Part shown: positions 1 through 19,203 of the stretch, piece after piece | Numbering within the stretch: position 1 is the stretch's first letter | Layout: each line of letters opens with the position of its first letter | Source: a virus | Lineage: Duplodnaviria > Heunggongvirae > Uroviricota > Caudoviricetes | Strand: one strand, 5' to 3' | Virus record (IMG/VR): IMGVR_UViG_2690316233_000017 | Coordinates: 1 to 21,923 of that record | DNA: 21,923 bases | The notes under the pieces: model-generated | Told to the model about the DNA's origin: nothing | Database searches by the model: none | The model's input: the letters and a program-made list of their open reading frames with translations, nothing else | Made by a program: the position numbers and the translations under genes

Positions 1-141
1 TTACTGCTTACACTGTAAGAACGCCGCAAACTCCGCTCCCCAGAAGCTCATCCGTATTTCACACAGCGAACCGTGCAGCATCCAGATGATGAGGATTACC
101 GTCACGCAGAACGTGATGGCCGTAAGCGATTTTTGCGACAT
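1..141 (-). CDS. hok: Hok/Gef-family type I toxin, 46 aa
   Basis: Minus-strand translation is MSQKSLTAITFCVTVILIIWMLHGSLCEIRMSFWGAEFAAFLQCKQ: an N-terminal hydrophobic helix followed by the SLCE and AAFL.CK motifs, closest to my memory of E. coli HokA. ATG at 141..139 is preceded by AAAGGAG at an 8-nt spacing; TAA stop at 3..1. The ORF track missed it because it is under 60 aa. Confidence 0.7.
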   Translation of the reverse strand: MSQKSLTAITFCVTVILIIWMLHGSLCEIRMSFWGAEFAAFLQCKQ

Positions 142-271
142 AGCGCTTGCTCCTTTGTTGGAGAGGCGCTAACCTATCACTTGCTAAGGTTAGACGGTTA
201 GGGCCTCGGTTAAACAGAAATGTTTTCCGGGGCCTTTCCACATCTGGCCTTCGGGTATTCCCTCCGACCAT
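59..271 (-). CDS. mok: Mok-like overlapping reading frame (70 aa) needed for hok translation
   Basis: A 70-aa ORF in a different frame that starts upstream of hok and fully overlaps its 5' part, which is the architecture and size of mok in hok/sok loci. Called from arrangement only; the sequence itself is not conserved. Confidence 0.4.
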   Translation of the reverse strand: MVGGNTRRPDVERPRKTFLFNRGPNRLTLASDRLAPLQQRSKRYVAKIAYGHHVLRDGNPHHLDAARFAV

Positions 272-312
272 CAGCCGAAAGGCACCCGCGCGTAATCTAT
301 CGCTTTTTTGTT
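245..312 (+). ncRNA. sok: Putative Sok-like antisense RNA region (boundaries approximate)
   Basis: Plus-strand region antisense to the mok start and leader, ending at a T-run (304..309) as expected for a short terminated antisense RNA. No clear promoter or strong terminator stem was identified, so placement rests on hok/sok architecture. Confidence 0.25.
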
Positions 313-331
313 ACTCCGGCAATTCTGCCTG

Positions 332-592
332 TTAATTCTGAGATAAAGGCAAACTCATCTGATTGTTTCCCCTGTGTGAAGCTGGCAGCTCATGCCACGG
401 GATACCTTCTGAAGAGTGAACGCCGGAGGCGTGTTTTGATGTGAATTTATGGAAAGCTTCCAGTGTTGAGAAGCATACGCCGCATTCCAGATTGTTACAC
501 TGGTAATACTTTTGCCGCACGGTGTTTGAATCATTTTCCGGACGACTGGTGCGGATACGGGCAGATGCGCCACAAAGCGGACAACGGAACAT
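332..592 (-). CDS. ogr: Ogr/Delta-family zinc-finger late transcription activator
   Basis: MFRCPLCG...YYQCNNLECGVCF carries the C-x2-C...C-x4-C zinc-finger pattern of P2 Ogr. ATG at 592 is preceded by AAGGGAGG at a 5-nt spacing. Confidence 0.85.
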   Translation of the reverse strand: MFRCPLCGASARIRTSRPENDSNTVRQKYYQCNNLECGVCFSTLEAFHKFTSKHASGVHSSEGIPWHELPASHRGNNQMSLPLSQN

Positions 593-634
593 AGCGACCT
601 CCCTTAACGTGGTGCTGTCGCTATTCTAAGTTCC

Positions 635-1744
635 TCACTCTGTTTCCGCTATCCATTCCGGGATTTTTGCCTCAAGCTCAAGCTGTGTGGTAAAGCCACT
701 GTTATCAATGGTGTGCTCGGCTTTTGCAATAATCCAGTCCTGATTATCAATCTCGCTTTTAAATCCTGTTACCGTGCCATGCATTTCGGGGTAGAGTTCT
801 GCGCGTCCACGTGCCAGTGTGATGGAGAATGATGCGGCTCCGCGTTGTAGCTGCTGCCACTTTGCCGCCGCTGCGCGTCTTGCTGCCTGCTCGTTCTGAT
901 AAGTCTTGCGTAACACAAACACATTGCCTTCCGCACCTTCCATATAATCACCTTCACGGCTGCTGCTTTTCTCCTTTTTGGGTTTTGGCGGTTTGCGGCG
1001 TTTCACGCTGACTTTTTTCTTTTTCCCGTAATTAAGATCAAGCCAGTAAGCGCGTACCCCCGTATACGCTTCGCGGTCAGCAATGCGGAACTGATGGCGA
1101 TCGCCACTGCTGCGCGTGATGGCGAACGATGGCAACGGCTGGCCCTGTGCGTTCACGCCACCGCCTGGCATAATGAATAACAGATTACCGCTTTTTACCG
1201 TGGTGATTGCGCCCAGCATTTCCGCCATGCGCGTAAGAAAGGACATGTCGCTTTCTTCGGTCTGGTCGGCGTGGTCGATTTCGATATCCATCAGCATTTC
1301 GCTGATTTGTGGTTTCAGACCGTACCGATGAGCGATGGCGGATACCACACGCTCAACGGTCACATCATGCCAGGACACCTCACGTTTAACGTTAAATTCA
1401 TCCCGAAAATCTGCGCTTCTGGCTGAAACAGTCAGCCTGTCCGGCGGTCCTTCGTGAGCGATTTCATCAACAATGTAAGTGCCTTTTTCTGTCAGCGGTT
1501 CCCCTTTCCAGCCAATGAGAACCGTCAGACGCGCGCCCCGTGGCGGTAGCTGCAACTGGCCATCGGCATCATCCAGCGTGATGGTGAGCTGGTCCGCCTC
1601 AAATCCCCGGTTGTCGGTCAGCGACAGGCTCATCAGGCGCTCTGCCACGCCGGACAGCGTTTTACCCTCCGCGAGAATATCAAAATCCGGCATTTTCACG
1701 GGGTCTGTGCCCTGACTGAGCAATTGCATGGTGGTGTCGGTCAT
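635..1744 (-). CDS. D: Tail protein D (late control gene D family)
   Basis: Long ORF with gpD-like sequence. Start set at the internal ATG 1744 (MTDTTMQLLSQG...), which is preceded by GGAGGG; the 44-codon extension in the ORF track has no RBS. Confidence 0.8.
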   Translation of the reverse strand: MTDTTMQLLSQGTDPVKMPDFDILAEGKTLSGVAERLMSLSLTDNRGFEADQLTITLDDADGQLQLPPRGARLTVLIGWKGEPLTEKGTYIVDEIAHEGPPDRLTVSARSADFRDEFNVKREVSWHDVTVERVVSAIAHRYGLKPQISEMLMDIEIDHADQTEESDMSFLTRMAEMLGAITTVKSGNLLFIMPGGGVNAQGQPLPSFAITRSSGDRHQFRIADREAYTGVRAYWLDLNYGKKKKVSVKRRKPPKPKKEKSSSREGDYMEGAEGNVFVLRKTYQNEQAARRAAAAKWQQLQRGAASFSITLARGRAELYPEMHGTVTGFKSEIDNQDWIIAKAEHTIDNSGFTTQLELEAKIPEWIAETE

Positions 1745-1801
1745 CTGTTCCCTCCCTGTGCGGCATGGTCGCATGTGCGTGCGGAGTGGGTTACTGCTTT
1801 T

Positions 1802-1822
1802 TGTTGTCGCCGTGGCGGGAGA
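1802..1822 (+). promoter_or_regulatory. Candidate Ogr-dependent late promoter element upstream of FI
   Basis: TTGTTGT-N12-AGAA lies about 90 bp upstream of the FI ATG and resembles the TGT-N12-ACA activator dyad of P2 late promoters with one mismatch. A near-identical motif precedes gene P at 19119..19139. Confidence 0.35.
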
Positions 1823-1901
1823 ATAGCGCAGGGGTGAGATTACGCGCGTGGTGGGTGATGATTGTTGCTGAATCATTTAACGGATACAAGGGGCTGAAGC
1901 T

Positions 1902-3086
1902 ATGAGTGAAACTCGTTTTCATGGTGCCCGTGTTACGGAAAGTACCGACCTGGTAACAGCGATTAATGATGTTGATTCCAGTGTTATCGGTATCGTGGCA
2001 ACGGCGGATGATGCGGATGCGGAGCTGTTCCCGCTGAACAAGCCCACACTGCTGACCCGCGTCAATGACGTGCTGGGAAAATGCGGAACAACGGGGACGC
2101 TGTATCGTGCGCTTAAGGCCATCGCAGACCAGGTGAGCACAAAGGTGATCGTCGTTCGCGTGGCTGAACACAAAGAAGAAGACGGAAAGACGCAGGATCA
2201 ACTGGTTATCGGTGGTTCTGAGGATGACGGCAGCTATACGGGGATGTATGCGCTGCTTGTTGCAGAGCAGGATGAAAGCATCGGATACCGTCCGCGTATT
2301 CTGGCCGCGCCGGAGCTGGACACGGAGGCGGTAACAAAATCCCTGTGCGTGATTGCGGGTAAACTGCGCGCGTTTGTGTATGCCTCATGTCACGGCTGCA
2401 ACACGATGGCTGAGGCGATTACCTACCGCCAGAAATTCAACGAGCGTGAGGTGATGCTCTTATGGCCGGACTTCATCGCCTACAACCCGAAAAGTGGCAA
2501 AAACGAAACGTTCCCCGCGCCTGCCTATGCGTGCGGCCTTCGTGCGTACATTGACCATGAGCAGGGCTGGCACAAATCGCTGTCCAACGTTCCGGTTAAA
2601 AATGTGCTGGGGATGTCCAGGCATGTGTTTTGGTCGTTGCAGGCCGAAGACAGTGATGCCAACAGCCTCAACAACAAAGAAATCACGACCATTATTCGTC
2701 GCAACGGGTTCCGCTTCTGGGGCAACCGCACACCGGAAACGAACGCCTACATCTTTGAGGTGTATACCCGAACCGCACAGGTGCTGGCTGATTCAATTGC
2801 GGAAGCGCAGTTTGAAACCATCGACAGTCCACTGACGCCTGCGAACGTGAAAGATGTTATCAGTGCCATCAGGGCAAAACTGGATTCACTGGTTACTGCC
2901 GGGAAACTGATTGGCGCGGAGTGCTGGTATGACATCGTGGATAACAGCACCACGAATTTACGTCAGGGGCGCGTGCGTATTCGCTACAAATATACGCCTG
3001 TTCCCCCGTTGGAAGACATGGAGCTTTACCAGTCGTTTACTGATGAATTCTTTGGTCCCGCATTTGCGGTGCTGGGAGGTGCCTGA
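1902..3086 (+). CDS. FI: Contractile tail sheath protein
   Basis: 394-aa ORF with the characteristic ...DADAE.FPLNKP... region of P2 FI. RBS AAGGGG sits 8 nt upstream of the ATG. Confidence 0.9.
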   Translation: MSETRFHGARVTESTDLVTAINDVDSSVIGIVATADDADAELFPLNKPTLLTRVNDVLGKCGTTGTLYRALKAIADQVSTKVIVVRVAEHKEEDGKTQDQLVIGGSEDDGSYTGMYALLVAEQDESIGYRPRILAAPELDTEAVTKSLCVIAGKLRAFVYASCHGCNTMAEAITYRQKFNEREVMLLWPDFIAYNPKSGKNETFPAPAYACGLRAYIDHEQGWHKSLSNVPVKNVLGMSRHVFWSLQAEDSDANSLNNKEITTIIRRNGFRFWGNRTPETNAYIFEVYTRTAQVLADSIAEAQFETIDSPLTPANVKDVISAIRAKLDSLVTAGKLIGAECWYDIVDNSTTNLRQGRVRIRYKYTPVPPLEDMELYQSFTDEFFGPAFAVLGGA

Positions 3087-3598
3087 TGGCTGTACCAAAA
3101 CATCTTCGCTTTTTTACGCTGTTTGTGGATGGTGAAAACGAAGTGGGTAAGGTGACGTCCGTCACTCTGCCTAAGCTGACGCGCAAAACCGACAGCTACC
3201 GGGGTGGTGGCATGATGGGTGCGGTAAGTATTGATCTCGGTCTGGACGACTCCGCGCTTGATGCGAGCTTTGTCATGGGGGGCGCAGTTCGTGAGCTGTT
3301 CCTTAAGTATGGCGGCACGATTGACGGCACGCTGCTGCGTTTTGCGGGTGAATACTACACCGATGCAGAAAGCGACCTGTATGAAGTCGAAATGCGCGGA
3401 CGTGTGACGGAAATTGATATGGGGGAAGCCAAACAGGGCGAAGCCACATCACACACTTACGCCATTAAAAACACCTACTACAAGCTGAGTGTTAACGATC
3501 GCCCGTTGTGGGAGATTGACCTGCTGAACTTCATTTACCGGAAGGACGGCAAGGACATTGTGCCCGATCGCATCCGTTCCGCGCTCGGGCTTGGCTGA
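3086..3598 (+). CDS. FII: Tail tube protein
   Basis: 170-aa ORF directly after the sheath gene; its ATG overlaps the FI stop (TGATG). Size and position match P2 FII. Confidence 0.9.
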   Translation: MAVPKHLRFFTLFVDGENEVGKVTSVTLPKLTRKTDSYRGGGMMGAVSIDLGLDDSALDASFVMGGAVRELFLKYGGTIDGTLLRFAGEYYTDAESDLYEVEMRGRVTEIDMGEAKQGEATSHTYAIKNTYYKLSVNDRPLWEIDLLNFIYRKDGKDIVPDRIRSALGLG

Positions 3599-3652
3599 TA
3601 AGTAATATGCAGGCGGCGCAGTGCGTCGCCTCTGACTGAAAGGAGTTTCCTG

Positions 3653-4018
3653 ATGAAAGAGACGAAAAACATCGATACCGAAAACACGGTCGTTGCTGAC
3701 ACTGTGAAAGAAACCAGTGAGCGTGGCGTAAAACTTACCCAACCAATTGAGCGAGGCGGCGAAAAAATCACGTATGTGGAGATCACCGGGGCTATTGAGC
3801 AGGCTGGATCTCTGCGAGATTTATCGCTGTCTGATGTGCTGAATCTGAAAGCGGAATCCATGTTTACGCTGCTGTCACGCGTGACATCACCGCGACTGGA
3901 TGAAGTGACGATCAAAAAAATGGCATCCCGTGATTTTATTCAGTTATGTGTGGTTGCCGTAAATTTTTTGAGCGGTGCGGACTCTGGCGGGAAGAACGAA
4001 CAGGCGACGGAAGCCTGA
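3653..4018 (+). CDS. E: Tail assembly chaperone E (zero-frame product)
   Basis: 121-aa ORF between the tube and tape-measure genes, with AAAGGAG RBS. Contains a T TTT TTG slippery heptamer near its 3' end. Confidence 0.8.
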   Translation: MKETKNIDTENTVVADTVKETSERGVKLTQPIERGGEKITYVEITGAIEQAGSLRDLSLSDVLNLKAESMFTLLSRVTSPRLDEVTIKKMASRDFIQLCVVAVNFLSGADSGGKNEQATEA

Positions 4019-4182
4019 TCACGGTTGTGTGCTTTGAGCACATAGAAGACTTTGTGGCGGATATTGCCGCCATTTTTAACTGGTCGCCCGCCGAAATCTT
4101 CATGATGACGCCCGGCGAAGTGGTTAGCTGGCGTGAGCGGGCGGCACTTCGCAGCGGGAATGCAGACAATGAAGACTCTTGA
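3653..4182 (+). CDS. E': Tail assembly chaperone E+E' (predicted -1 frameshift product)
   Basis: The -1 frame is open from 3946 to 4182 and overlaps the end of E. A shift at T_TTT_TTG (3964..3970) would join the two frames, analogous to P2 E/E' and lambda G/GT. Confidence 0.55.
3964..3970 (+). other. Programmed -1 ribosomal frameshift slippery heptamer T_TTT_TTG
   Basis: The heptamer is in phase with the E reading frame (codons aat-ttt-ttg) and lies inside the E/E' overlap window. Confidence 0.55.
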
Positions 4183-6976
4183 TATCCGGGTCGCTTTCAG
4201 CGCCGTTGACAGGCTGACCCGGCCTGCCGAAAACGCCCGCCGCCTGATGGGGCAGTTTGGTGACTCCATCCAGCGAACGCAGGGGGCGATCAAAAATCTC
4301 GAGCGTCAGGCGCGATCATTTGAGCGCGCCCGCGACGCTGTCAGTAAAGCGGATGCGGGTATCGTGAAAGCACGACGCCAGCTTAACGCCCTTAATCAGT
4401 TACAACGCACGGGTACAGTGCTCAGCGAAAAACAACAAAAGCTGATGCAGCAGTTAAGCACCCGGCTTGAACGCCTGAATGAATCGCGCACACGGGAAAT
4501 TCAGAAAATGCGGGAGCTTGGCGGAGAGCTGAAACGCCACGGCATTTCCCTGACAGGCAGCGATAACACCATCCAGCAGGCCATCAGACGCACCGAACAG
4601 TACAACAACCAGCTTGAACGCGAACGGCAGGCGCTTGCGCGTGTAACGCGGGCGCGTGAGCGGTATTCGCGCGCGCAGGAAACCGCGGGAAAACTGAAAA
4701 CAGGTGGTGCGCTGGCAATTGGTGCGGCAGCGGCGGGCGGCTATGCTGCCGGGCGTTTTTTGCAGCCTGCGATCGGGTTCGGCAAAGAGATGTCCCGCGT
4801 TCAGGCACTGACGCGAATCGACAAAAACAGCCCGCAGTTTAAGGCGCTGCGTGAGCAGGCGTTAAAACTTGGCTCTGAAACACAGTTTACTGCGAGTGAT
4901 GCCGCCAGTGGGCAGAGCTTTCTGGCAATGGCTGGTTTTACTCCGCAGGCCATTCAGGCCGCATTGCCCGGTGTTCTTAATATGGCGCTGGCAGGTGGCG
5001 TCGAACTCGGCGAGACGGCGGATATAGGCTCCAATATCCTCACACAGTTCAACCTGACAGCCGATCAAATGGACCGGGTGGGCGATACGCTGACAGCAGC
5101 ATTTACCCGGACCAATACTGATTTACGCGCGCTGGGCGAAACCATGAAGTATACCGGTCCGGTTGCCGCAAAACTTGGTATCAGTCTTGAAGAAGCGGCG
5201 GCCATGGCCGGGATGCTTGCCAATAATGGTCTTCGCGGAAGCGATGCTGGCACGGCCATGCGCGCAAGTCTGTCCCGCCTTGCATCACCGCCAAAAGCTG
5301 CGGCTGATGCACTGAAAGAGCTGGGGGTGTCAGTTGCTGACGCCAGAGGCAAAATGCGCCCGATGGAGGATGTGCTGCTTGATCTCTATAAGGCGACACA
5401 AAAATACGGACAGGTGGACCAGGTCTCCTTTTTCAAGGACATCGCCGGAGAAGAGGCGTTCGTTGGTTTGCAGACGCTTGTTGCGGCGGCTGGTTCAGGA
5501 GAGCTGCAAAAACTGACCAGAGAATTGCAGGGGGCAAGGGGAGAGGCCGATCGCGTTGCAAAAGTAATGGCCGATAATCTTGATGGGGACCTGAAAAATC
5601 TCGACAGCGCATGGGAAGGTCTTCGTATTCGCATCAGTGATCTGGTTGACGGTCCGCTGCGTTCTGTCACGCAGTGGCTCACGCGGGTGCTTGAAAAAAT
5701 CACCTCGCTGGCGCAGGCCCATCCGGTACTGACACGCCAGCTACTGATAGCAGGCGGTGCGTTGCTGGCAATGACTGCAACGATTGGCTCGTTGTCGCTG
5801 GTTATTGGGGTGCTTTACGGAAAGCTGGCCACCCTGCGTCTTGGTTTTGACATTCTTACCCGGTCAATGAATGTCGTCAGGGTGTTGCCTGCGCTGTGGG
5901 GAATGCTGACGGGTTCCGTTTCTTTGCTGGGAGGCGCTATCGGGGCGCTGTTCAGTCCGGTTGGTCTTATCGTGGCTGCGCTTGCCGGAGCTGCCGTTCT
6001 TATCTGGAAATACTGGGATCCCATCAGGGCATTTTTTGCCGGGGTGTTCAGCGGGATTATGGAAAGGCTGAACCCGTTGCGTGAAACCTTTGAACGGTTT
6101 GGCCCTGTTTTTGACGCAATCGGAAGCGGGATCAGCCAGGTGTTTAACTGGTTTAAATCGCTGCTGTCACCGATGGAGTCCAGCAAGGAAACGCTGGATA
6201 AATGTACCAGTGCTGGCGAGATATTCGGTAACGTTCTTGGTGGCGCGTTACAGCTTGTTCTGACGCCTGCAAAAATGTTGCTGGATACGCTGGCGTGGAT
6301 ACTTGAAAAACTCGGTGTTCTTCCGGATGAAGCGGAAAGGGCGAGAAAGAAAATCGAAGACGCACAGCGTGCGGCCATTCTTCAGGACAAGGTTGCCTTG
6401 CTTCAGGGGGACCTGGCGAAAATCAATCCGCCGAAGCCTGTGGAAAATGGCAATGGCACCGGAGGTGATAACCCCAAAGACAACAAACCGCTCACAGACA
6501 GCAATACCGGTACGCTACGCAGACTCAGCAAAATTGCTGATAACACAGGTAAGCTGGTTGATGTGACGAAAAAACGCATTGGCCCCGGCGATATTGTCTT
6601 TAAGAACCTGCCCCGCGCACTTGCTGTTCGTGGGGAGTGGCAGGAGCGGAAGATTGCGCAGGTCAGTAAGCCTGCCCCCGCAATTAATATCACACCCGTG
6701 GTTCCGGCTCCGCTGCCTCCGGCGCTGGTCCCTGTTGTTGCGGCCAGCTCCCGCCCGGTGGCGGAGGCCATACGATCGCCAGTGGCATCAGTTCCTGCAA
6801 CTTCCCGTAACCGTGAGCCTGTTGCCTCCGGATTTGGCGGTGAAATTCATGTTCATCTGCATAACGTTGTTACACAGAATCCCCGCGAACTGGCGAAACT
6901 GGTCGGTGAAATGGTCAGGGCAGAAATGGAACGGCGCGCCCGTGCCGGGCGTGGCAGTTTTTACGATAAAGATTGA
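4160..6976 (+). CDS. T: Tail tape measure protein
   Basis: About 939-aa ORF with a coiled-coil-like N-terminus, a central hydrophobic/Gly-Ala-rich segment and a Pro-rich C-terminus, placed after E/E' as in P2. Start is ambiguous between ATG 4160 and ATG 4169; the ORF track's 4133 begins on a non-ATG codon. Confidence 0.85.
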   Translation: MQTMKTLDIRVAFSAVDRLTRPAENARRLMGQFGDSIQRTQGAIKNLERQARSFERARDAVSKADAGIVKARRQLNALNQLQRTGTVLSEKQQKLMQQLSTRLERLNESRTREIQKMRELGGELKRHGISLTGSDNTIQQAIRRTEQYNNQLERERQALARVTRARERYSRAQETAGKLKTGGALAIGAAAAGGYAAGRFLQPAIGFGKEMSRVQALTRIDKNSPQFKALREQALKLGSETQFTASDAASGQSFLAMAGFTPQAIQAALPGVLNMALAGGVELGETADIGSNILTQFNLTADQMDRVGDTLTAAFTRTNTDLRALGETMKYTGPVAAKLGISLEEAAAMAGMLANNGLRGSDAGTAMRASLSRLASPPKAAADALKELGVSVADARGKMRPMEDVLLDLYKATQKYGQVDQVSFFKDIAGEEAFVGLQTLVAAAGSGELQKLTRELQGARGEADRVAKVMADNLDGDLKNLDSAWEGLRIRISDLVDGPLRSVTQWLTRVLEKITSLAQAHPVLTRQLLIAGGALLAMTATIGSLSLVIGVLYGKLATLRLGFDILTRSMNVVRVLPALWGMLTGSVSLLGGAIGALFSPVGLIVAALAGAAVLIWKYWDPIRAFFAGVFSGIMERLNPLRETFERFGPVFDAIGSGISQVFNWFKSLLSPMESSKETLDKCTSAGEIFGNVLGGALQLVLTPAKMLLDTLAWILEKLGVLPDEAERARKKIEDAQRAAILQDKVALLQGDLAKINPPKPVENGNGTGGDNPKDNKPLTDSNTGTLRRLSKIADNTGKLVDVTKKRIGPGDIVFKNLPRALAVRGEWQERKIAQVSKPAPAINITPVVPAPLPPALVPVVAASSRPVAEAIRSPVASVPATSRNREPVASGFGGEIHVHLHNVVTQNPRELAKLVGEMVRAEMERRARAGRGSFYDKD

Positions 6977-6988
6977 GGAGTCATGGCC

Positions 6989-7477
6989 ATGATGATGATC
7001 TACGGCATGTTTGTTTTTGAGCTGCGCACGCTGCCGCATCAGCAGTTACAGCAAAACAAAAGCTGGCGGCATGTGAAAAATGAGCGCGTTAACCGTTCAG
7101 CAAGCTGGCAGTATATCGGTGCAGGTGATGATCGCATCGTTCTTTCTGGTGTGCTTTATCCTGAAATTACAGGTGGCGAAGTGTCGCTGTCGCTGCTGAC
7201 CACGCAGGCGTATACAGGACGACCCTGGCCTTTGATTGATGGCGTCGGGCAGATTTACGGCATGTATGTCCTGACCGGAACGAATACGACCCGTTCCGAG
7301 TTTGATCGCTACGGTAAGGCGAAAAAGATAGAATTTTCACTGACCCTTGAACGCTGTGATGAGGATTTGCGGGAGCGCCTGCAATCCTCATCGTTCAGCG
7401 ATATGCTGTCCGGCTTCAAAGATAAAGTGACATCATCCCTTAACAGCGCGGCCAGTTCAGTTAAAGGGCTGTTCTGA
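6989..7477 (+). CDS. U: Tail protein U
   Basis: gpU-like ORF immediately after T. GAGGAG at 6975..6980 is spaced 8 nt from ATG 6989; the ATG at 6983 is only 2 nt from it. Confidence 0.8.
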   Translation: MMMIYGMFVFELRTLPHQQLQQNKSWRHVKNERVNRSASWQYIGAGDDRIVLSGVLYPEITGGEVSLSLLTTQAYTGRPWPLIDGVGQIYGMYVLTGTNTTRSEFDRYGKAKKIEFSLTLERCDEDLRERLQSSSFSDMLSGFKDKVTSSLNSAASSVKGLF

Positions 7478-7484
7478 TTTAATG

Positions 7485-7524
7485 CTGGCCACTCATACCC
7501 TCATACCTGGTAATGAGTGGCCAG
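7485..7524. terminator. Perfect 12-bp inverted repeat hairpin just after the U stop; possible bidirectional terminator
   Basis: CTGGCCACTCAT (7485..7496) and ATGAGTGGCCAG (7513..7524) flank a 16-nt loop, followed by TCTT. The U-tract is weak, so terminator function is not certain. Confidence 0.35.
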
Positions 7525-7647
7525 TCTTAACACTCACCATTTGATTGCACCAGTGTTAACGATTTGTTACCGGATATCAGACGCGCTGGATAGCCAGTAG
7601 AAACATACCATTAAAATTATTACAATAATTGGTCACATGATTATCTT

Positions 7648-8211
7648 ATGCTAAATAATAGAGATATGAATATTAATGAACTTAAAGACTGTATTCACTA
7701 TGAAGTAATCGGTAGCGAGCGTCCTTTCTCCTGGCGAAAGGCAATTGTTCGCGCAATAAAACATAGAAGAGTTCGTTATTTATTTTGGTGGCGCATAGCC
7801 AAATACCTTTTTGATAAAGGCGGATACTGTCGGAAGATTGCGGGGAAAATAGAACGTTTCATTCTTGATAAATATAATGTAACAGTCCCTTTAACTGTAA
7901 ATATAGGGAAAGGCTTTGATATTTCTTATCTCAATAGTGTTGTTATCGGTCACAAAGTAACCATCGGTGAAAATTGTTCAATAAAACCAGGGGTAACTAT
8001 TGGGCTACGTGGTGATTTTAATGATATGGATATTGTTATAGGACATAATGTGACCATTGGTTGTAATGCCACCATTCTTGGTGGCAAAGTGCGTATAGGA
8101 AACAATGTCACAATAGGTGCTCATGCATTGGTATTGCATGATATTCCTGATGATTCAACATTCATCACTAAATTTCAGTCTGAAGTTATCTGCTCGTCCT
8201 CCCGCACATAA
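7648..8211 (+). CDS. Hexapeptide-repeat (left-handed beta-helix) acetyltransferase, WcaB/CysE-like; cargo gene
   Basis: Repeated [LIV]-G-x-x-x-x hexapeptides ([22 protein letters not shown]...[34 protein letters not shown]) after a helical N-terminal region, as in serine/sugar O-acetyltransferases. Strongly AT-rich by eye compared with the flanking phage genes. Start could also be ATG 7666. Confidence 0.7.
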
Positions 8212-8792
8212 CCCTGATTCATCAGCTCTGGCCATACGATATCCGGAGCTGTACTGGTGTCAATTCGACTCACTAATACTCTGTATTTTCTCCAGGAATC
8301 CAGTTGTGAATTTTCCTCGTTTGTTGCTATTTCAAGATTAACGGCATCCTGCAGAATTGCGATGTTATCTGTTGCCTCCTGGATCAACCTTGCCTTTTTC
8401 TCTTCCGCTTCCCGTATCCGAAACAGTTTTTCTGCTTCCTCATCCTTCACCCAGGATACGCCGTCCCACTTCTGATACTCCCCTGCTGGCGACAACCAGG
8501 TGACATTCTCTGGTAGCGGTCCGGGTTCAGAAATAAACAACGCGTCCCCCGAGGCCACGTCATAGACCGTTTTACCACGATGGTCTTCAACAATATTCCA
8601 CGATTCATTTTCACTGTTAAAAACTGCCACAAAGCCAGCAGGAATTTCCGGTGGGGCGATATCTGTAGAATTAGCTGGCAGCCCTGTATGAGGTGGAATA
8701 TATGCGTCACCTTCACCAATAAACTCATTAGTTCCGGCCAGCAGGTTATAAATTTTTACAGTACGTGATTGTTCACTCATTCTGAATGCCAT
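8175..8792 (-). CDS. G: Tail fiber assembly protein (Tfa chaperone)
   Basis: C-terminal ...[19 protein letters not shown] matches the conserved Tfa motif. ATG at 8792 overlaps the H stop (TAATG) with GAGG RBS. The last ~12 codons overlap the acetyltransferase gene 3' end. Confidence 0.8.
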
Positions 8793-10792
8793 TATGCAAG
8801 CCTCACAATATAATTAAATGCGATGTTTTTAACGGTGTTTTCCGCGTTACCAGCAGCGTTAACGGTGATGGTATGTCCATGTGAACCAATCGCAACAGAG
8901 TGCGTATGAGCGCCAATACCAACTGTATGTGCATGCGCCCCTGCACTTGCAGCAGTGCCTGATACTGAGTGGGTGTGTGCACCAGAAGAAGGCACTGTTC
9001 CATTCCCCACGACCGTGCCACTTGATGCACCATCAAGCCAGTCGAAATTCATACCTCCACTGTTTGGTCTCCTTAATGGAACGGTATGAGTATGTGCGCC
9101 AGCACTATTTGCAGTACCAGATACATTGTGGGTATGTGCACCTGTGTTATTCGTTGATTTAGTACCGTAATCAAACGACGATGTGGTTTTCGTACCCAAA
9201 TCCGTACTGGATGCGCTGGCACTGTGGGTGTGCGATTTAATGCCATCCTGTTCCTGAGACAATACGGCTCGACCACTTGCGGGCTTGCCCTTGATTGTCC
9301 AGCCACGCATATCGGGGAGTACACCAGAGGGATAAGCTGCTGCAAGCAGGGGATAGGTTGTTTTATCAAAAGTCTGCCCCTGCATAACGGCATAGCCTGT
9401 AGGCACTGAATCAGAAGGCCACGGAATCGCCGCACCTACAGGAAATGAATCCTGCGGCGTCCATGCTGTCCAGTCACCCGTTGAGTACTGGCTGCGGGTA
9501 TAGCTTCTGGATGTGTTATACACATAGTAAATCTGTGTTATCCCGGCACTTTTAAGCACAACCAGTGTACCGGCAAGATTCTCTGGGTATTTCAGCGCTG
9601 CACTTGTATTGGCATTCGCAGGCTGATGGTACAGCCCCGGCGTTTTGTAATTATCCAGATTCTGGTTTGCACCAATCTCAATACTCTGATCGTTAAAAAT
9701 ATCCTGTGATGTAACATTGACATCATTGGTCAGTGGTTTGCCATTAACCTTACGTCCAGAGGGCACACGCCCGTTTGCATTGTCATTAGCAGCTTTCACC
9801 GCTTTCGGAGTCGCGGCAAGCGTTTCAGACGTGCTGTTGGTTGCACTAGTAAGCTGGACTATCCCTTTTTGTGCTGTTGTTGCATCCTGTGCGGTGTATT
9901 TGCCATTAGCAAGGTCATATGCTGCCTTTACCGCCTTTGGCGTTGCCGCCAGCGTTTCAGAATCGCTGTTGGTGGCACTACTTAGCTGGACAAGACCTTT
10001 TCGCTCTGTGGTAGCGTCCTGTGCGGTATATTTCCCGTTAGCAAGGTCATATGCTGCCTTTACCGCCTTTGGCGTTGCCGCCAGCGTTTCAGAATCGCTA
10101 TTGGTGGCGCTACTGAGCTGAACAAGGCCTTTTCGCGTCGTGCTGGCATCCTGCGCAGTATATTTCCCGTTAGCAAGGTCATACGCGTCCTTTACTGCTT
10201 TCGGCGTTGCAGCTTGTGTTTCAGACACGCTGTTAGTGGCGCTACTGAGTTGAACAAAGCCTTTTGCGGTCAGCGAGGCGTCCGGGTGACGTCGTGACTG
10301 TTCATGCTCTTTCAGTTTGTCATCCACGTAATCCACTGTGGCCATCACCATGGTGTTATCCACGGTAAGTGCCACGGTGGCAGTGCTGGATACGGTCAGA
10401 ATGGTGCGAAATGTCTGTGCACGACCGGACCCTTCGGCAACGGCTGGCTTGTAACTTTCGGCAGTATTGCCTACCGCGATTAAATCGCCGTGCTCATCAA
10501 ACACACCAATTTCCCGGATCCAGAATCCGCCCGTTTCTGGAGGAATAGCCAGCTCCGCAATAATGCGGTTCTGATGTGTTGCGTCCAGGAAGACGCGATT
10601 AACGGTATGTCGCCACACCTCACGCACAAGACGGGTCTGCTTACTGTCTGGCGTGGGTAAAGTACCGCCGCCGTCACCCACGGCCATATGTGTCAGGCGG
10701 ACGGGTTTACCATCTGGTGCGGCTGCCTGCGCTAATTTTTTGGCACCCGTATCGGTGATAATGGTTTTAAATTTTCGTGTTGTGGTACTCAT
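8792..10792 (-). CDS. H: Tail fiber protein
   Basis: 666-aa ORF with an N-terminal region like P2 H, four tandem 44-aa repeats, and a His-rich C-terminal domain with repeated G-A-H-T-H-x-V motifs. Confidence 0.9.
9765..10290. repeat. Four tandem ~132-bp repeats inside the tail fiber gene
   Basis: The same core sequence recurs at 9909, 10041 and 10173 (period 132 bp), with a more diverged copy upstream. It encodes ...[42 protein letters not shown]... four times. Confidence 0.8.
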
Positions 10793-10794
10793 GC

Positions 10795-11325
10795 TTAATC
10801 GTCCGGATAGATGGTAATGACTTCACCGTCGTAAGTTGCTGCCGCTGCGAAAATATCTCCCGGGATCTCCTGAATGATATTCAGCCCTGTCATGTGGCGG
10901 CTGACCGGGCGGGCATCAGCAATCAACCGCTCCATTTCCAGATACATTTCCTCCGTCACGCCACTGTCCAGCGTGCCGACTTCAACGGTAAATGTTCCCG
11001 GTTCTCCGCCGAACTCCCACCACTCAGACACACGAATGAGGTATCCCAGCGGCTCAATGGCCCGGCGCAGTACGCTGATGGTCCCTTTGTGTCGGTGTAT
11101 CAGCCATGCATCACGAATAACCTGTCGCTTTGTCTCTTCCGGCCAGTTGCGATCCCAGCGGTCAACGGAAAATGCCCAGGCGAGATAAGGCAGCAGATGC
11201 ACCGGGCATGTGTCCGGCGACCACAGCGTGTTGAGGTCTACCGGAATGTCTGTAATGCGCGTTCCGACGGCTTCGGCACAACGCATGAAATTGCTGGCTG
11301 ATGGTGGTAACAGCGAATTACTCAT
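10795..11325 (-). CDS. I: Baseplate/tail protein I
   Basis: gpI-like ORF between H and J. Start set at ATG 11325 with GAAGGTGG RBS; the track's start at 11358 is GTG with no RBS. Confidence 0.8.
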
Positions 11326-12214
11326 TGCGCCCACCTTCGCTGATGGTGAACGACTCACAGCGCGCCGCCTGTATGTCGCTGATGGCCATATTCTGTGTGG
11401 GTTCGATTATCTCCACGCGTTGCACACCGTGCACATGCAGTGCGGCAGCAATGGCGGACAACGCCACGTCCTGACCGATAAGCCCCTGCTCAGCCAGCCA
11501 CTTCCTGAACGACGATTCCGCCGCAGCCAGAATAGGTTCGGATTCCGGGCCGGGGTAAAAGTACAGTTTTGCATTCAGCCGCCATGTCACGATTCTGGCA
11601 CTCTGTACGGTCAGGCGGTCGGCCACCGGACGGGTATCCTCTGCATTCAGAACGGCGCGAACGGTATTAAGCAACGCCTCCGTTGCTGTGCCGTCGCCTT
11701 CAGTGGACAGGATGGAAACCGTCACATTTGCCGGAGACGGGCTGATGGCCCGCGCATCACGCACCAGACCGCTGGCGCTGCGGGCAAAATACTCGTATGC
11801 ACCTGACGGGCCAGCAACACTCAGGCCGTCGTACGCCCGCTGCGCCCGCAGTCTCAGTGAGGTGTCACTCTCCATCACCGCGTCGGTGGTATCCGTTGCC
11901 GGAGTGATGGTCAGGCGCTTTGTGTTCATATTGCCCGCGAGGTTGTCCAGGTCTGTCCCGGTGCTGTGGCTTAACATGCAGGCCCGTGCCCCCTCATTGA
12001 CCCGCTGGCGTAACAGCATTTCACGAAACGCTGTTATCTGGGCGATAACGTTCAGGGGTTCCGATTCCAGCTCCAGCGCGGCGGAGACGGCTTCACGCTG
12101 TTCGGCGGGATAAGCCGCAATCATCATGGCCTTTGTGTCAGCCAGAATTGCCTCAAAATCAGGCTCCGCGATAATGGCGGGGTCCGGTAACTGGGAAAGG
12201 TCAACAGCAGGCAT
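11318..12214 (-). CDS. J: Baseplate assembly protein J
   Basis: 298-aa ORF matching P2 J in size (about 302 aa) and position; overlaps the I start by 8 nt. Confidence 0.85.
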   Translation of the reverse strand: MPAVDLSQLPDPAIIAEPDFEAILADTKAMMIAAYPAEQREAVSAALELESEPLNVIAQITAFREMLLRQRVNEGARACMLSHSTGTDLDNLAGNMNTKRLTITPATDTTDAVMESDTSLRLRAQRAYDGLSVAGPSGAYEYFARSASGLVRDARAISPSPANVTVSILSTEGDGTATEALLNTVRAVLNAEDTRPVADRLTVQSARIVTWRLNAKLYFYPGPESEPILAAAESSFRKWLAEQGLIGQDVALSAIAAALHVHGVQRVEIIEPTQNMAISDIQAARCESFTISEGGRNE

Positions 12215-12217
12215 GAT

Positions 12218-12568
12218 TTACTCTCTCAGCGTGATGGTTAATTCAACATTCTGCATGGTCTGCATGACAGTGCCCGACAGCGTCACCCCGGCGCGGCCTC
12301 CTGCCTTCCAGACAACGTCGATGGCATCCAGGGCAATGCGGGGTTCCCATCGTGTCAGTGCAATCACGGCAGCACTCATGCATTGCAGACGCGTGGTGTT
12401 ATTCATGGGTTCGTCAATCAAATCAGGCACAAGGCTGCCATATTCCCGTCGCATAACCCGGCTTGCCAGCGGGGTGGTCAGGATATCCCTGACTGACTGT
12501 TTCAGGTGCTCCATATCGTTCAGGTTTCCCGTCCCGTCCGGATTCATTCCTGTGTAGCGGGTTGTCAC
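12218..12568 (-). CDS. W: Baseplate protein W (gp25-like)
   Basis: 116-aa ORF between V and J, the size and position of P2 W. Confidence 0.85.
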   Translation of the reverse strand: MTTRYTGMNPDGTGNLNDMEHLKQSVRDILTTPLASRVMRREYGSLVPDLIDEPMNNTTRLQCMSAAVIALTRWEPRIALDAIDVVWKAGGRAGVTLSGTVMQTMQNVELTITLRE

Positions 12569-13146
12569 TGCGGGCCTCCTGTCGAATCGCTGCCGCCTTT
12601 CACGCCACCGTGTTTATGCGTATGCACGGTAATGCCGTTTGAGGTGAAGTTGCCGCCGCTGTGCGTGATATTGCCGCTCATCTTTCCTCCTTTTATGACG
12701 TCAAGCGTCGCCGTTCTCAGAAGGTTTGTGCATTCCACGACGGGCGTATCCAGTTTCACGCTGACGGATGCCTGTAAAGTGGCCGTTTTCATGCCGCTGG
12801 CGCTCAGTGCGCCTGCGTCCACGTCGTAGCGGAACACCGCGCCGTCCGGCGCGCTGATCACGATTTCGTTCAGGCTTTTGCCGGGGGCCGGACTGGCATC
12901 ACTCCACAGGCTGCCAATTATCATGGCGGTTTCCGGGTTGCCGCCAATGCAGGCAATTACCACCTGTTCGCCTGGTGATGGCGGCAGCCACACATTGAAG
13001 GCTCCCGCGCGCGTGGTGTTCCAGCGCAGCCAGCCTGTTTCCAGTTCGCCGCTGCGAACGCGCACGCACCAGGATTCCTCATCAACTTCAGAGATGATCC
13101 CGGTACGGATGATGTTGCTCAGCAGTCGCATGAGTTCTGCGCTCAC
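12565..13146 (-). CDS. V: Baseplate spike/assembly protein V
   Basis: 193-aa ORF at the P2 V position; overlaps the S stop and the W start. Confidence 0.85.
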   Translation of the reverse strand: MSAELMRLLSNIIRTGIISEVDEESWCVRVRSGELETGWLRWNTTRAGAFNVWLPPSPGEQVVIACIGGNPETAMIIGSLWSDASPAPGKSLNEIVISAPDGAVFRYDVDAGALSASGMKTATLQASVSVKLDTPVVECTNLLRTATLDVIKGGKMSGNITHSGGNFTSNGITVHTHKHGGVKGGSDSTGGPQ

Positions 13147-13787
13147 CGTACAGCCTCCGCAATCCGGCCCAGCACCGTGTTATAAATCAGGCGCTCATCT
13201 GCCTGGCTGATACCCAACAGCTCACGTACCGGGTAATCGGTGAAAATGCCCGGCGCAACCTGATCGCGCTCACCGAACTGATGAACGCGGGCAATACGTG
13301 CGGCCACGCCGCTGTAACCCACCGTCACACCGGAAGCATCTGCACGGGCTTTCAGGTAGCGGGCGGTGCGCAGTTTTACGAACATGGGGACGCGCTTTGT
13401 GCTGTCCTGGTTGATGCGCCGGGTGCGTATTTCCAGAAAACGGTCGATGTCATCCCGGTAAAACGTGCGGATATTGTTTTTATCCTCATCCCACCCGGTA
13501 ATGGTTCGCCCGTATTTCCCCGTGTCGTGATGCCAGTTTTTCAGCGTGCGTGCTTCGTTATTCCAGATAAAGCGAATGCGTTCCTGTATCCGGGTTACGC
13601 GGCGTCTGCGTGGTGTCCACGCGGTCCCGTCCGGCGCTTTCTGTGACCGGATACGCGCCTGCTGGGCGCGGCGTAAATCCTGTGCCAGCTTTCTGGCGAT
13701 GTTATTGATGGCCTGCTGATTCAGGCTGTCGCGGATGGCATCAAAGGTTTCATCCACGCGGGTGAATGCCTTATCCATCGCTTTCAC
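13143..13787 (-). CDS. S: Virion morphogenesis / tail completion protein (S position)
   Basis: ORF between R and V, assigned by position. At 214 aa it is longer than the ~150 aa I recall for P2 S, so identity is less certain. Confidence 0.6.
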   Translation of the reverse strand: MKAMDKAFTRVDETFDAIRDSLNQQAINNIARKLAQDLRRAQQARIRSQKAPDGTAWTPRRRRVTRIQERIRFIWNNEARTLKNWHHDTGKYGRTITGWDEDKNNIRTFYRDDIDRFLEIRTRRINQDSTKRVPMFVKLRTARYLKARADASGVTVGYSGVAARIARVHQFGERDQVAPGIFTDYPVRELLGISQADERLIYNTVLGRIAEAVR

Positions 13788-18212: not shown

Positions 18213-19049
18213 TCAGAAGTCAGCCAGCTGGTCGGAGGCTGTGCCCGTTGCAGTGAACCGGTTCTGCGGATCGCCGTCCTGCGTGCGCAGTTTTTCCTTC
18301 AGTGCTGTCAGCTCTGTGGTCAGTGACGTAATTTTCTGGCGGTCCTGCTGATGGCGGGTTTCCAGCACATTAAAACGGTCGATAATGTCGGCCTGTGACG
18401 TTGCGACGCCTTCCACCGCTTCCTGAATACGGGAAAAACTGGCGTCATCCGCTTTGCGGCCACGGCCAATAATCCCCATTACGCGGTTAAACCACTGGGT
18501 GCCTTCTTCCTGGCGTTGTTCTGCCATTTCGATGATTTCAGACTCGATGGCTTCGGAGATAAGCGGCGCTTCACCCTGGACACTGTTGAACGTCATTACC
18601 GCCTGACGTTGCTGTGCCGTGAATTTCAGGCGCTCAGTGCCCAGGCTTGCCGGGGTGTCGGTCATCGCCAGCCCGACCAGATAGGCGCGCCCGTTAACGG
18701 AGAACTGCGGGTGCAGTTCGATACTGGAATAGATTTTCTTGCCGTCCGCGACAAGCTGCTTCATGCGCTCGGTCGGTTCGATTTCTGCATACAGCGCAGT
18801 ACGTCCGGCCAGCGGACCTTCCGTAATGTCTTTCGTACTCAGTGCGGTGACATCGCCCATTGCGGAAAATTCGCTTGACGGGCATGGCGAGAGATAGTGC
18901 TCAACGTTCACGCGGGCAGCGTAAACATCCGGGTTGAAGTTCTCGGCGGCTTCACGCAGATGCACCGGACTGATTTCACGGCCATCAACAGTTGATCCGG
19001 AGACAGCCACGCGAAACTTTTTGCGGGATGTCTTTTTTTCATTAGCCAT
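18213..19049 (-). CDS. O: Capsid scaffolding protein O
   Basis: gpO-like ORF upstream of N. Start set at ATG 19049 (MANEKK...) with GAGGGG RBS. Confidence 0.85.
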   Translation of the reverse strand: MANEKKTSRKKFRVAVSGSTVDGREISPVHLREAAENFNPDVYAARVNVEHYLSPCPSSEFSAMGDVTALSTKDITEGPLAGRTALYAEIEPTERMKQLVADGKKIYSSIELHPQFSVNGRAYLVGLAMTDTPASLGTERLKFTAQQRQAVMTFNSVQGEAPLISEAIESEIIEMAEQRQEEGTQWFNRVMGIIGRGRKADDASFSRIQEAVEGVATSQADIIDRFNVLETRHQQDRQKITSLTTELTALKEKLRTQDGDPQNRFTATGTASDQLADF

Positions 19050-19118
19050 AGTTTTTGCCCCTCTGACTGGTTCTTCAGTCATGATGGCAAAGCGTAACAG
19101 GCTGATACAAAGGGCTTT

Positions 19119-19139
19119 TGTTGTAAGAAAACGGCCAGA
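19119..19139. promoter_or_regulatory. Candidate Ogr-dependent late promoter element in the divergent O/P intergenic region
   Basis: TTTTGTTGT-N12-AGAACA lies about 75 bp upstream of the P ATG and closely resembles the motif upstream of FI (1802..1822). Confidence 0.35.
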
Positions 19140-19203
19140 ACAGGGGGTTAAGGAGAACAGTTTCGCGCGCGGGTAATCTTCCTGTAATTACTCAGGGGGA
19201 GCA

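Follow-up and report, generated by a model that had tools for sequence, protein, structure and literature searches.

The window we analysed, a stretch of 21,923 nucleotides, is the late-gene region of a P88-like prophage of E. coli (Peduoviridae, probably Xuanwuvirus). From left to right it carries ogr and D on the minus strand, FI, FII, E/E', T and U on the plus strand, a cargo gene, and G, H, I, J, W and V on the minus strand (Table 1). The contractile-tail set is complete, comprising the FI sheath, FII tube, E/E' chaperone, T tape measure, U and D, with PHROG and Pfam matches throughout. Nucleotide identity to P88 is 95.4% over 80% of positions 1-12000, in a window that holds 21.9 kb of the prophage; the genus demarcation in ICTV practice is about 70% nucleotide similarity over the full length. 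The window is far more distant from P2. Its proteins are mostly about 42-55% identical to those of P2, with extremes in E (32%), T (33%) and I (61%), and the tail-set genes FI, FII, E, T, U and D fall between 32 and 49% in tblastn comparisons (FI 46%, D 49%). The Ogr homologue is 36.5% identical to P2 Ogr, and its gene lies directly downstream of D, at a distance of 42 bp, as in P2. An Rfam scan gave no match anywhere in the window, and PADLOC matched neither the cargo gene nor an ORF of 70 aa at 59-271.

Table 1. Features of the late-gene region and its predicted regulatory sites, with positions in the window (strand given as a dot for dyads).
Feature	Position	Strand	Basis
ogr homologue, late-gene activator, 86 aa	332..592	-	PF04606 Ogr_Delta, E = 5e-14
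D, tail/baseplate hub protein, 369 aa	635..1744	-	phrog_52, PF05954
Predicted D promoter, extended -10, TG-c-GACCAT on the minus strand	1765..1773	-	Hexamer 1765-1770, TG 1772-1773
Ogr-type activator dyad, TGTTGT-N12-AGAATA	1802..1825	.	Form of the annotated P2 sites, GTTGT-N12-CCA
Predicted FI (F operon) promoter, -10 hexamer GATGAT	1857..1862	+	32 nt from dyad edge
FI, tail sheath, 394 aa	1902..3086	+	phrog_23; PF04984, PF17482, PF22671
FII, tail tube, 170 aa	3086..3598	+	PF04985, E = 7.5e-47
E, tail assembly chaperone	3653..4018	+	phrog_103
E+E', predicted -1 frameshift at T TTT TTG (3964-3970), ending at 4182	3653..4182	+	PF06528 Phage_P2_GpE in the -1 frame
T, tape measure	4133/4169..6976	+	phrog_28, PF10145
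U, tail protein, final gene in the inverted block	6983..7477	+	PF06995, E = 1.5e-38
Stem-loop immediately 3' of U, stem of 13 bp, candidate terminus of the F transcription unit	7484..7525	+	Fold energy, shuffles
Second hairpin after U	7527..7559	+	
Cargo gene, left-handed beta-helix O-acetyltransferase-like, 187 aa	7648..8211	+	PF00132 Hexapep
G, tail fibre assembly	8175..8792	-	phrog_105, PF02413
H, tail fibre	8792..10792	-	phrog_295
Second activator dyad, TGTTGT-N12-AGAACA, in the divergent O/P spacer	19119..19142	.	Counterpart of the single annotated P2 pO/pP site

The ends of three genes deserve comment. The longest D reading frame reaches 1876, but homology and the alignment of relatives set the start at 1744, which matches the P88 annotation and the aligned start codons of 21 relatives. 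In E, the heptamer and the content of the -1 frame predict a programmed frameshift, and a -1 frameshift is annotated at the equivalent point of P2 E. T probably begins with the ATG at 4169, where it overlaps E' at its end just as in P2, and the P88 annotation corresponds to this start.

In the P2 record the order V-W-J-I-H-G-(fun/Z)-FI-FII-E-T-U-D-ogr runs along one strand. The FI-U block of the window has therefore been flipped between the same two neighbours, the slot holding the cargo gene next to G on one side and D on the other. D itself lies outside the inverted block and shares its strand with G to V; G and H are the right-hand neighbours of the block, followed on the minus strand by I, J, W and V. 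The canonical order, in which FI-U and D are co-directional with V-G, is absent from the window, where FI-U is on the opposite strand. A reading made earlier from the sequence alone (the sequence-only reading) had described FI to U as inverted in place relative to P2, and the gene identities, the strands and the order in the P2 record bear this out, with "in place" strictly shown for the present neighbours only. That reading had also described D, together with ogr, as parted from the F operon and facing FI across a 157-bp spacer (1745-1901), with which the coordinates agree. The canonical order characterises P2 and many of its relatives without being a criterion of the Peduoviridae; several classified genera lack it.

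The spacer between the divergent D and FI genes contains a single Ogr-type dyad, recognised, like the other activator site of the window, by comparison with the annotated P2 sites. In relatives the dyad has the form TGTTGT-N12-ACAACC and its centre precedes the FI start by 74-88 bp, in most cases by 80-88 bp; the activator site of P2 pF is 82.5 bp upstream of FI. In the window, the right half-site (AGAATA) is a weak match to the consensus ACAACC. In all four mapped P2 late promoters the -10 hexamer starts 32 nt from the dyad and transcription starts about 7 nt past the hexamer. Among 43 distinct spacers from relatives, 41 have an A2/T6 hexamer at this offset on the FI side (consensus GAATAT/GATTAT), and 41 have one on the D side, again at exactly 32 nt from the edge of the dyad. 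The TG of an extended -10 is also kept on the D side in 32 of the 43, and a conserved CGCGCGCG block adjoins this element. A MAFFT alignment of 21 spacers shows conservation of the dyad and of the element on either side of it. Based on these positions, transcription of FI is predicted to start near 1869 and that of D near 1758, should the D-side element function as a promoter; each start would lie about 55 bp from the dyad centre, which would leave D with a leader of no more than about 14 nt. Together, these features suggest that one Ogr-type dyad drives divergent FI and D promoters, by analogy with the P/O pair of P2.

The window contains only two modules that combine a dyad with hexamers, one in the D/FI spacer and one in the O/P spacer, and the scan for such modules found no separate one for V. 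At the O/P dyad, the P-side hexamer TAATCT starts at 32 nt and the O-side hexamer CATCAT at 33 nt. An exact search for TGT-N12-ACA gave four matches in the window, a number not above chance, with none in the D/FI or O/P spacers. The activator sites of P2 are themselves imperfect relative to TGT-N12-ACA.

The other end of the block is marked by the two hairpins after U. The fold energy for 7470-7560 is -33.1 kcal/mol (z = -5.05 versus shuffles). The strong hairpin that the sequence-only reading had placed after U is thus real, with a strong stem; however, it is followed by the tail UCUUAAC instead of a U-run, and the terminator scan of the window did not call it. Because it has no U-tract, it is not a textbook intrinsic terminator. 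In most relatives a strong, non-homologous stem-loop is found within about 70 nt after U, and several of these have T-runs, among them P88 and the relatives L035 and L017. The idea that FI-U is an independent transcription unit holds up in that the block looks self-contained, with an activator site of its own and a stem-loop after U.

The slot between U and G is variable. In the window it is filled by the acetyltransferase-like cargo gene, whose best NCBIfam matches, EpsC, CysE and WcaB, are all under the cut-off, whose GC content is about 40% versus about 54% in the flanks, and whose 3' end overlaps that of G by 37 nt. Sigma-70-like sites are present at 7598-7659. In P88 and phiSM the slot holds a DNA invertase and alternative fibre genes.

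The flipped order is ordinary for a large group of P2-like phages, P88 and its relatives, and is not an anomaly. It is annotated in the isolated phages P88, phiSM, SEN5 and KSP20, and tblastn detects it in a Reipivirus and in a Reginaelenavirus, both phages of Klebsiella. Activity as phages has been reported for P88 and phiSM (PMC5285337, PMC6456863). Of 5426 complete E. coli genomes, 1356 (about 25%) have a contiguous D/FI junction; 929 genomes are collinear with the window over 80% or more of its length, and the junction from U through the cargo gene to G is contiguous in 111 complete genomes. In a survey of 80 species-representative genome loci, which are the best 80 sheath matches and not an unbiased sample of P2-like phages, the order is inverted in all 40 loci whose FI is at least 55% identical to that of the window and canonical in all 40 loci with a P2-type FI. 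The inverted loci come from about 20 genera of Enterobacterales. The sequence-only reading had implied that the arrangement is unusual, while allowing that its presence in many P2-like phages would make it ordinary for the lineage; with six phages, 40 of 40 loci and about a quarter of E. coli genomes sharing the order, the implied unusualness falls away. In the literature searched on Xuanwuvirus, P2-like and Peduoviridae gene order we found no text that remarks on the inversion.

In neighbour-joining phylogenies, the two arrangement classes are separated with bootstrap values of 100 for FI, 99 for FII, 99 for U and 100 for D, and the outgroups Citexvirus, Baylorvirus and VHML have the canonical order. 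The clean split of the surveyed loci, the bootstrap values and the canonical outgroups together point to one ancient inversion that has since been fixed. For the baseplate genes J, V, W and I, the trees cut across the division into inverted and canonical phages; the unit formed by D and FI-U therefore has a history partly separate from that of the rest of the tail.

Could the flipped block be an artefact, a switch or an import? An assembler that set FI-U in the wrong orientation would produce the departure from the P2 order, and nothing else speaks for such an error. Against it, several complete E. coli chromosomes match the entire window collinearly, in one piece and with 99.2% identity, both junctions are contiguous in the complete genomes counted above, and isolated phages sequenced independently show the flipped order. 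We reject misassembly on the contiguity of the junctions and the window, and give it practically no chance; the sequence-only reading, which had also argued against an assembly error, was right in this respect, as the order in P88 and phiSM, the contiguous junctions and the collinear chromosomes attest. The DNA invertase that immediately adjoins U in P88-like relatives could hint at an active Gin/Cin/Hin-type switch that flips FI-U and happened to be seen in one orientation. However, the invertase of the relatives serves alternative exons of the tail fibre, and an invertase holds the same G-side slot in canonical-order phages too. In the window, a tblastn query with the P88 invertase finds nothing, and no inverted repeats pair the junctions at 1745-1901 and 7478-7647. 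Relative to D, the block has a single orientation in each of the 47 inverted-class sequences compared (six phage records, 40 genome loci and the window itself) and in the 1356 E. coli genomes. Given this uniform orientation and a window with neither an invertase nor flanking inverted repeats, we reject the switch as well, as highly improbable. One repeat pair, I9 (1803-1824 with 8475-8496, 73%), was taken as a chance match, its second arm lying inside G. The flipped order is a fixed gene order, neither a switch nor an assembly artefact.

An alternative explanation is that a foreign module of sheath, tube and tape-measure genes, with or without D and ogr, was recombined into the late region in the opposite orientation. 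The discordance between the trees of J, V, W and I, which break the split between inverted and canonical phages, and those of FI, FII, U and D, which follow it, indicates that the tail region is mosaic. However, FI-U has diverged from P2 (32-46% identity) no more than the head genes (37-44%) or D (49%), and D, although outside the block, co-segregates with it at 100% bootstrap. The block also sits between exactly its P2 neighbours, with a P2-type dyad at the P2 distance from FI, and one ancestral inversion of FI-U relative to D would be needed in any case. We regard acquisition of a module as improbable. A different question is whether the dyad serves FI alone, with D relying on an extended -10 promoter that needs no Ogr, or on some other route of expression. 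Extended -10 promoters can work without an activator, and the D-side element, having the TG, could fire without Ogr; the TG-n-hexamer kept in 32 of the 43 spacers and the conserved block beside it would fit this explanation. However, the exact 32-nt offset on the D side in 41 of 43 spacers, which mirrors the FI side and the four P2 late promoters, is not expected if the dyad is irrelevant to D. We consider Ogr-independent expression of D unlikely, while giving it appreciable weight.

The explanation that we favour, and hold to be very probable, is that the window is a P88-like late region that inherited a single ancestral inversion of FI-U, and that its one Ogr dyad in the D/FI spacer serves FI and D. 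On this view, a single event in the ancestor shared by a large clade of P2-like Enterobacterales phages inverted the segment from the F promoter to the end of U, which carries the activator site together with FI, FII, E/E', T and U. The segment was flipped between the slot for tail-fibre or cargo genes and D, and the order has been passed on unchanged. As a consequence of the inversion, the F operon would end after U, at a stem-loop or terminator; D and then ogr would form a separate leftward unit; and the activator dyad of the F promoter now lies between two divergent genes. There, the dyad may serve mirror-image late promoters, rightward for FI and leftward for D, whose activity, Ogr dependence and start sites we infer from the comparisons above.

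A further reading, which we offer tentatively and rate at a little short of even, is that the late regulon was rebuilt after the inversion into two mirror-symmetric bidirectional regions, P/O and D/FI, with a D-side promoter that arose de novo and with ogr-D plus FI-U forming an exchangeable module. Each region would consist of one Ogr dyad with -10 hexamers 32 nt away on both sides, and the D promoter would be an extended -10 at the mirror position of the FI promoter. If the regulon was rebuilt in this way, one bound activator could fire in both directions, the amount or timing of D would be independent of sheath and tube, and ogr-D plus FI-U would be exchangeable separately from the baseplate genes.

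The main value of these observations is corrective: the gene order of P2 cannot serve as a template for all P2-like phages. Prophages of the large clade with the flipped order are very common in E. coli, Salmonella, Klebsiella, Serratia, Pectobacterium, Providencia, Xenorhabdus and others, and annotation pipelines and synteny checks should not mark the order as an error. With bootstrap values of 99-100% for four genes, the arrangement is a clean single-origin marker that divides this clade from the P2-type phages. The conserved mirror-image promoter geometry is mildly interesting as a testable case in which an activator-dependent promoter may have become bidirectional after a rearrangement.

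Among the phages compared, the Xuanwuvirus members P88, phiSM (a Citrobacter phage), 520873, 500465-2 and PhiR44_2 are closest to the window, with 93-97% nucleotide identity over 72-80% of positions 1-12000. They have the same arrangement of ogr and D on the minus strand, FI-U on the plus strand and fibre and baseplate genes on the minus strand, and P88-like relatives share the D-FI spacer, the dyad and the hexamers. They differ in the slot between U and G, where P88 and phiSM have the invertase and alternative fibre and assembly genes and the window has the low-GC acetyltransferase-like gene; G and the C-terminus of H also differ from those of P88 and phiSM. After U, the hairpin of the window has no U-run, whereas that of P88 is T-rich and terminator-like. 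SEN5 (Senquatrovirus, Salmonella), Kp4848-1 (Reipivirus) and Kp4878-3 (Reginaelenavirus), both from Klebsiella, and Serratia phage KSP20 share the flipped order and the promoter architecture of the spacer, with FI 55-70% identical to that of the window, but differ from it in fibre genes, cargo and hosts. P2 has the same gene set (V W J I H G, FI FII E/E' T U, D and ogr) and shares with the window the T TTT TTG in E, the form of the dyad, the 32-nt offset and the distance between dyad and FI. A divergent promoter pair around one dyad is already present in P2 at P/O; however, D closes the F operon in P2, where it overlaps the end of U, whereas in the window it stands alone with its own predicted promoter.

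In the annotated P2 record the genes run V-W-J-I-H-G-(fun/Z)-FI-FII-E-T-U-D-ogr on a single strand. The layout of the window was derived from an ORF listing together with PHROG and Pfam scans (see the table); past H the minus strand continues with I, J, W and V and next with lysis and head genes, whereas P, the terminase gene, is plus-strand. Given the one-strand order in P2, the strands in the window reveal that everything from the F promoter through U is flipped, and that its flanking neighbours are the same two. The layout and the annotated P2 record thus confirm the sequence-only reading, which had the block from FI to U inverted in place relative to P2.

Layout of the tail gene region in the window, from ogr to the tail fibre gene
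Feature	Position	Strand	Domain or family
ogr	332-592	-	PF04606
D	635-1744	-	PF05954
FI (sheath)	1902-3086	+	sheath domains
FII (tube)	3086-3598	+	PF04985
E	3653-4018	+	phrog_103
E'	-1 shift at T TTT TTG (3964-3970), end 4182	+	PF06528 in -1 frame
T (tape measure)	4133/4169-6976	+	tape measure
U	6983-7477	+	PF06995
Acyltransferase-like cargo	7648-8211	+	hexapeptide repeat
G (fibre assembly)	8175-8792	-	fibre assembly
H (tail fibre)	8792-10792	-	tail fibre

For the scaffold gene O, the longest ORF begins at 19082 (minus strand), which would put its first codon upstream of where O transcription is predicted to begin; a more likely start is the ATG at 19049 (minus strand; MANEKK..., with AGGGG before it). 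Positions 1-141 (minus strand) encode a 47-aa hok/gef-like toxin ORF, MSQKSLTAITFCVTVILIIWMLHGSLCEIRMSFWGAEFAAFLQCKQ, whose P88 counterpart is annotated as 'MokW-like host killing'; a hok/sok RNA was not among the results of an Rfam scan of the window, which gave no hit.

The flipped order is not an assembly error, since the annotations of Escherichia phage P88 and Citrobacter phage phiSM have the same strands as the window and the junctions are contiguous in complete E. coli genomes. Both are reported to be active, P88 as inducible and able to lyse new hosts (PMC5285337), and phiSM as spontaneously active (PMC6456863). Of 5426 complete E. coli genomes, 1356 have a contiguous D/FI junction (query 1300-2500), and 111 share the U/cargo/G junction and have the cargo gene with the same flanks. 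Collinearity with the window extends over 80% or more of its length in 929 complete genomes, and several O121 chromosomes, among others, align with the entire window in one piece at 99.2% identity. The window is 93-97% identical to P88 and other Xuanwuvirus; it belongs with the P2-like phages and, to the extent that 21.9 kb can show, in the P88-like genus.

The same arrangement, with ogr and D on the minus strand, FI to U on the plus strand, and the fibre and baseplate genes on the minus strand, is found in Salmonella phage SEN5 (Senquatrovirus), Serratia phage KSP20, and Klebsiella phages Kp4848-1 (Reipivirus) and Kp4878-3 (Reginaelenavirus). Sheath identity between the window and these four phages is 55-70%, compared with only ~46-47% for P2-type sheaths. 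We scanned the sheath alignment against one genome per bacterial species and classed the best 80 loci by tblastn; among these, the order is flipped in all 40 loci whose FI is at least 55% identical to that of the window and canonical in all 40 with a P2-type FI. Hosts of flipped loci include Salmonella, Citrobacter, Enterobacter, Kosakonia, Klebsiella, Raoultella, Serratia, Brenneria, Pectobacterium, Erwinia, Pantoea, Mixta, Providencia, Morganella, Xenorhabdus and others. The split between the two orders is well supported in neighbour-joining trees (bootstrap 100 for FI, 99 for FII, 99 for U and 100 for D). The more distant relatives Citexvirus, Baylorvirus and VHML have the canonical order, which reveals that the flipped state is derived and arose only once. 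The sequence-only reading had implied that the flip is unusual, allowing that many P2-like phages sharing it would make it ordinary for the lineage; they do share it, and the order is ordinary. It is visible in public annotated genomes from several classified genera; our literature searches, which did not reach the most relevant review, found no paper commenting on it.

One compared locus (L009, NZ_JBQPOM010000071.1) bears the Gram-positive genus label 'Vagococcus sp. WN89Y', and its prophage sheath is 97% identical to that of the window, an E. coli-type phage; the label likely reflects assembly contamination or mislabelling. In the flipped loci of Trabulsiella odontotermitis (L017) and Klebsiella sp. 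WOUb02 (L054) the match to D begins only at residues 208 and 73, respectively, and ~780-850 bp separate the D and FI matches, suggesting that D has decayed or acquired an insertion at its 5' end.

P88-like relatives carry a Gin/Cin-type invertase in the slot adjoining U, as part of an alternative tail-fibre cassette, and canonical-order phages have an invertase in the same G-side slot. We reject the explanation that FI-U is an invertible switch: the window contains neither an invertase nor inverted repeats that pair the two block junctions, and the orientation of the block is the same in all relatives examined. One of the two ancestral inversion breakpoints coincides with the invertase slot; the idea that an invertase brought about this inversion by acting on a pseudo-site is pure speculation. 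Among the compared relatives, the slot that separates the F block from the tail-fibre genes holds a Gin/Cin-type invertase in flipped loci L001, L002, L010, L017, L030, L031, L036, L042 and L045 and in canonical loci L049, L055, L057, L061, L064, L068, L070, L072, L073 and L080; the neighbour of the invertase is U in the flipped order and the FI promoter in the canonical order. Window proteins are mostly ~42-55% identical to those of P2 (~32-33% for E and T, 61% for I), and FI-U has not diverged more than the head genes or D; these values give no sign that a more distant source contributed FI-U. The trees of the baseplate proteins J, V, W and I across relatives L001-L087 do not follow the flipped/canonical split, and J of the window, for example, shares 55% identity with its P2 counterpart versus 45% with that of the Reipivirus. 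D and FI-U thus have a history partly separate from that of the baseplate, indicating that recombination has taken place between a module of D, sheath and tube and one of baseplate and fibre. Tail genes have been rearranged in another P2-like phage too: in Mannheimia phage vB_MhM_535AP1 (L089, Baylorvirus), T is annotated upstream of V and not between E and U.

The hairpin after U, from which the sequence-only reading argued for an independent transcription unit, is strong (7484-7525, z = -5.05), but it lacks a U-run and was not called in a terminator scan. In most relatives U is followed within ~70 nt by a strong stem-loop that differs from this one, several with clear T-runs, suggesting that termination there is likely a conserved function provided by non-homologous sequences. 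The variable slot that follows, the counterpart of the P2 fun/Z slot, holds the invertase cassette in P88 and phiSM, is empty in SEN5, and contains the O-acetyltransferase-like gene in the window. This gene has ~40% GC and its own sigma-70-like promoter sites (7598-7659), and its 3' end overlaps that of G by 37 nt (8175-8211). The best matches of its product, EpsC, CysE and WcaB, are all below cut-offs. It may be a lysogenic-conversion gene.

The annotated activator sites of P2 (pO/pP, pV and pF) follow the pattern GTTGT-N12-CCA/ACA. In the window, Ogr-type dyads are found in the D/FI spacer (TGTTGT-N12-AGAATA, 1802-1825) and the O/P spacer (TGTTGT-N12-AGAACA, 19119-19142), and the pattern has no other match there; the centre of the former is 88.5 bp from the FI start, compared with 82.5 bp at P2 pF. 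When 21 D/FI spacers of diverged relatives are aligned, the dyad consensus is TGTTGTC-N11-ACAACC. Conserved on its FI side are a hexamer GA(A/T)TAT, then GAACTCA and the ribosome-binding site, and on its D side CGCGCGCGCA-TG-A-AACCAT (minus-strand reading), just upstream of the D ribosome-binding site. Of 43 distinct spacers anchored on the dyad, 41 have on each side an A2/T6 hexamer that begins at an offset of exactly 32 nt from the dyad edge, compared with 10 or fewer at any one other position, and 32 of the 43 have an extended -10 TG on the D side. All four P2 late promoters have a hexamer at this 32-nt offset, with the mapped start ~7 nt past it. From this conserved geometry, the FI promoter in the window would have the hexamer GATGAT (1857-1862) and a start near 1869, and the D promoter would be TG-c-GACCAT (1765-1773, minus strand), with a start near 1758 and a leader of ~14 nt. 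A GC-alternating block, conserved in relatives L004-L054, lies immediately upstream of the predicted D hexamer (1774-1790; CGCGCGCG in most relatives, CGCACGCA in the window); it also occurs upstream of the hexamer on the P side of the O/P spacer (19163-19172, TCGCGCGCGGG-TAATCT).

S and V (within 12565-13787, minus strand) overlap, which leaves no room for a P2-style V promoter, and a looser scan found no third dyad-plus-hexamer module in the window. The lineage may be without a separate V promoter, with O through G forming one ~11 kb transcription unit. What interest the flipped order retains lies in its mirror-symmetric promoter design, which is conserved and makes for a modest hypothesis that can be tested. 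The P/O pair of P2 has the same mirror design, with one annotated activator site 55.5 bp from each start.
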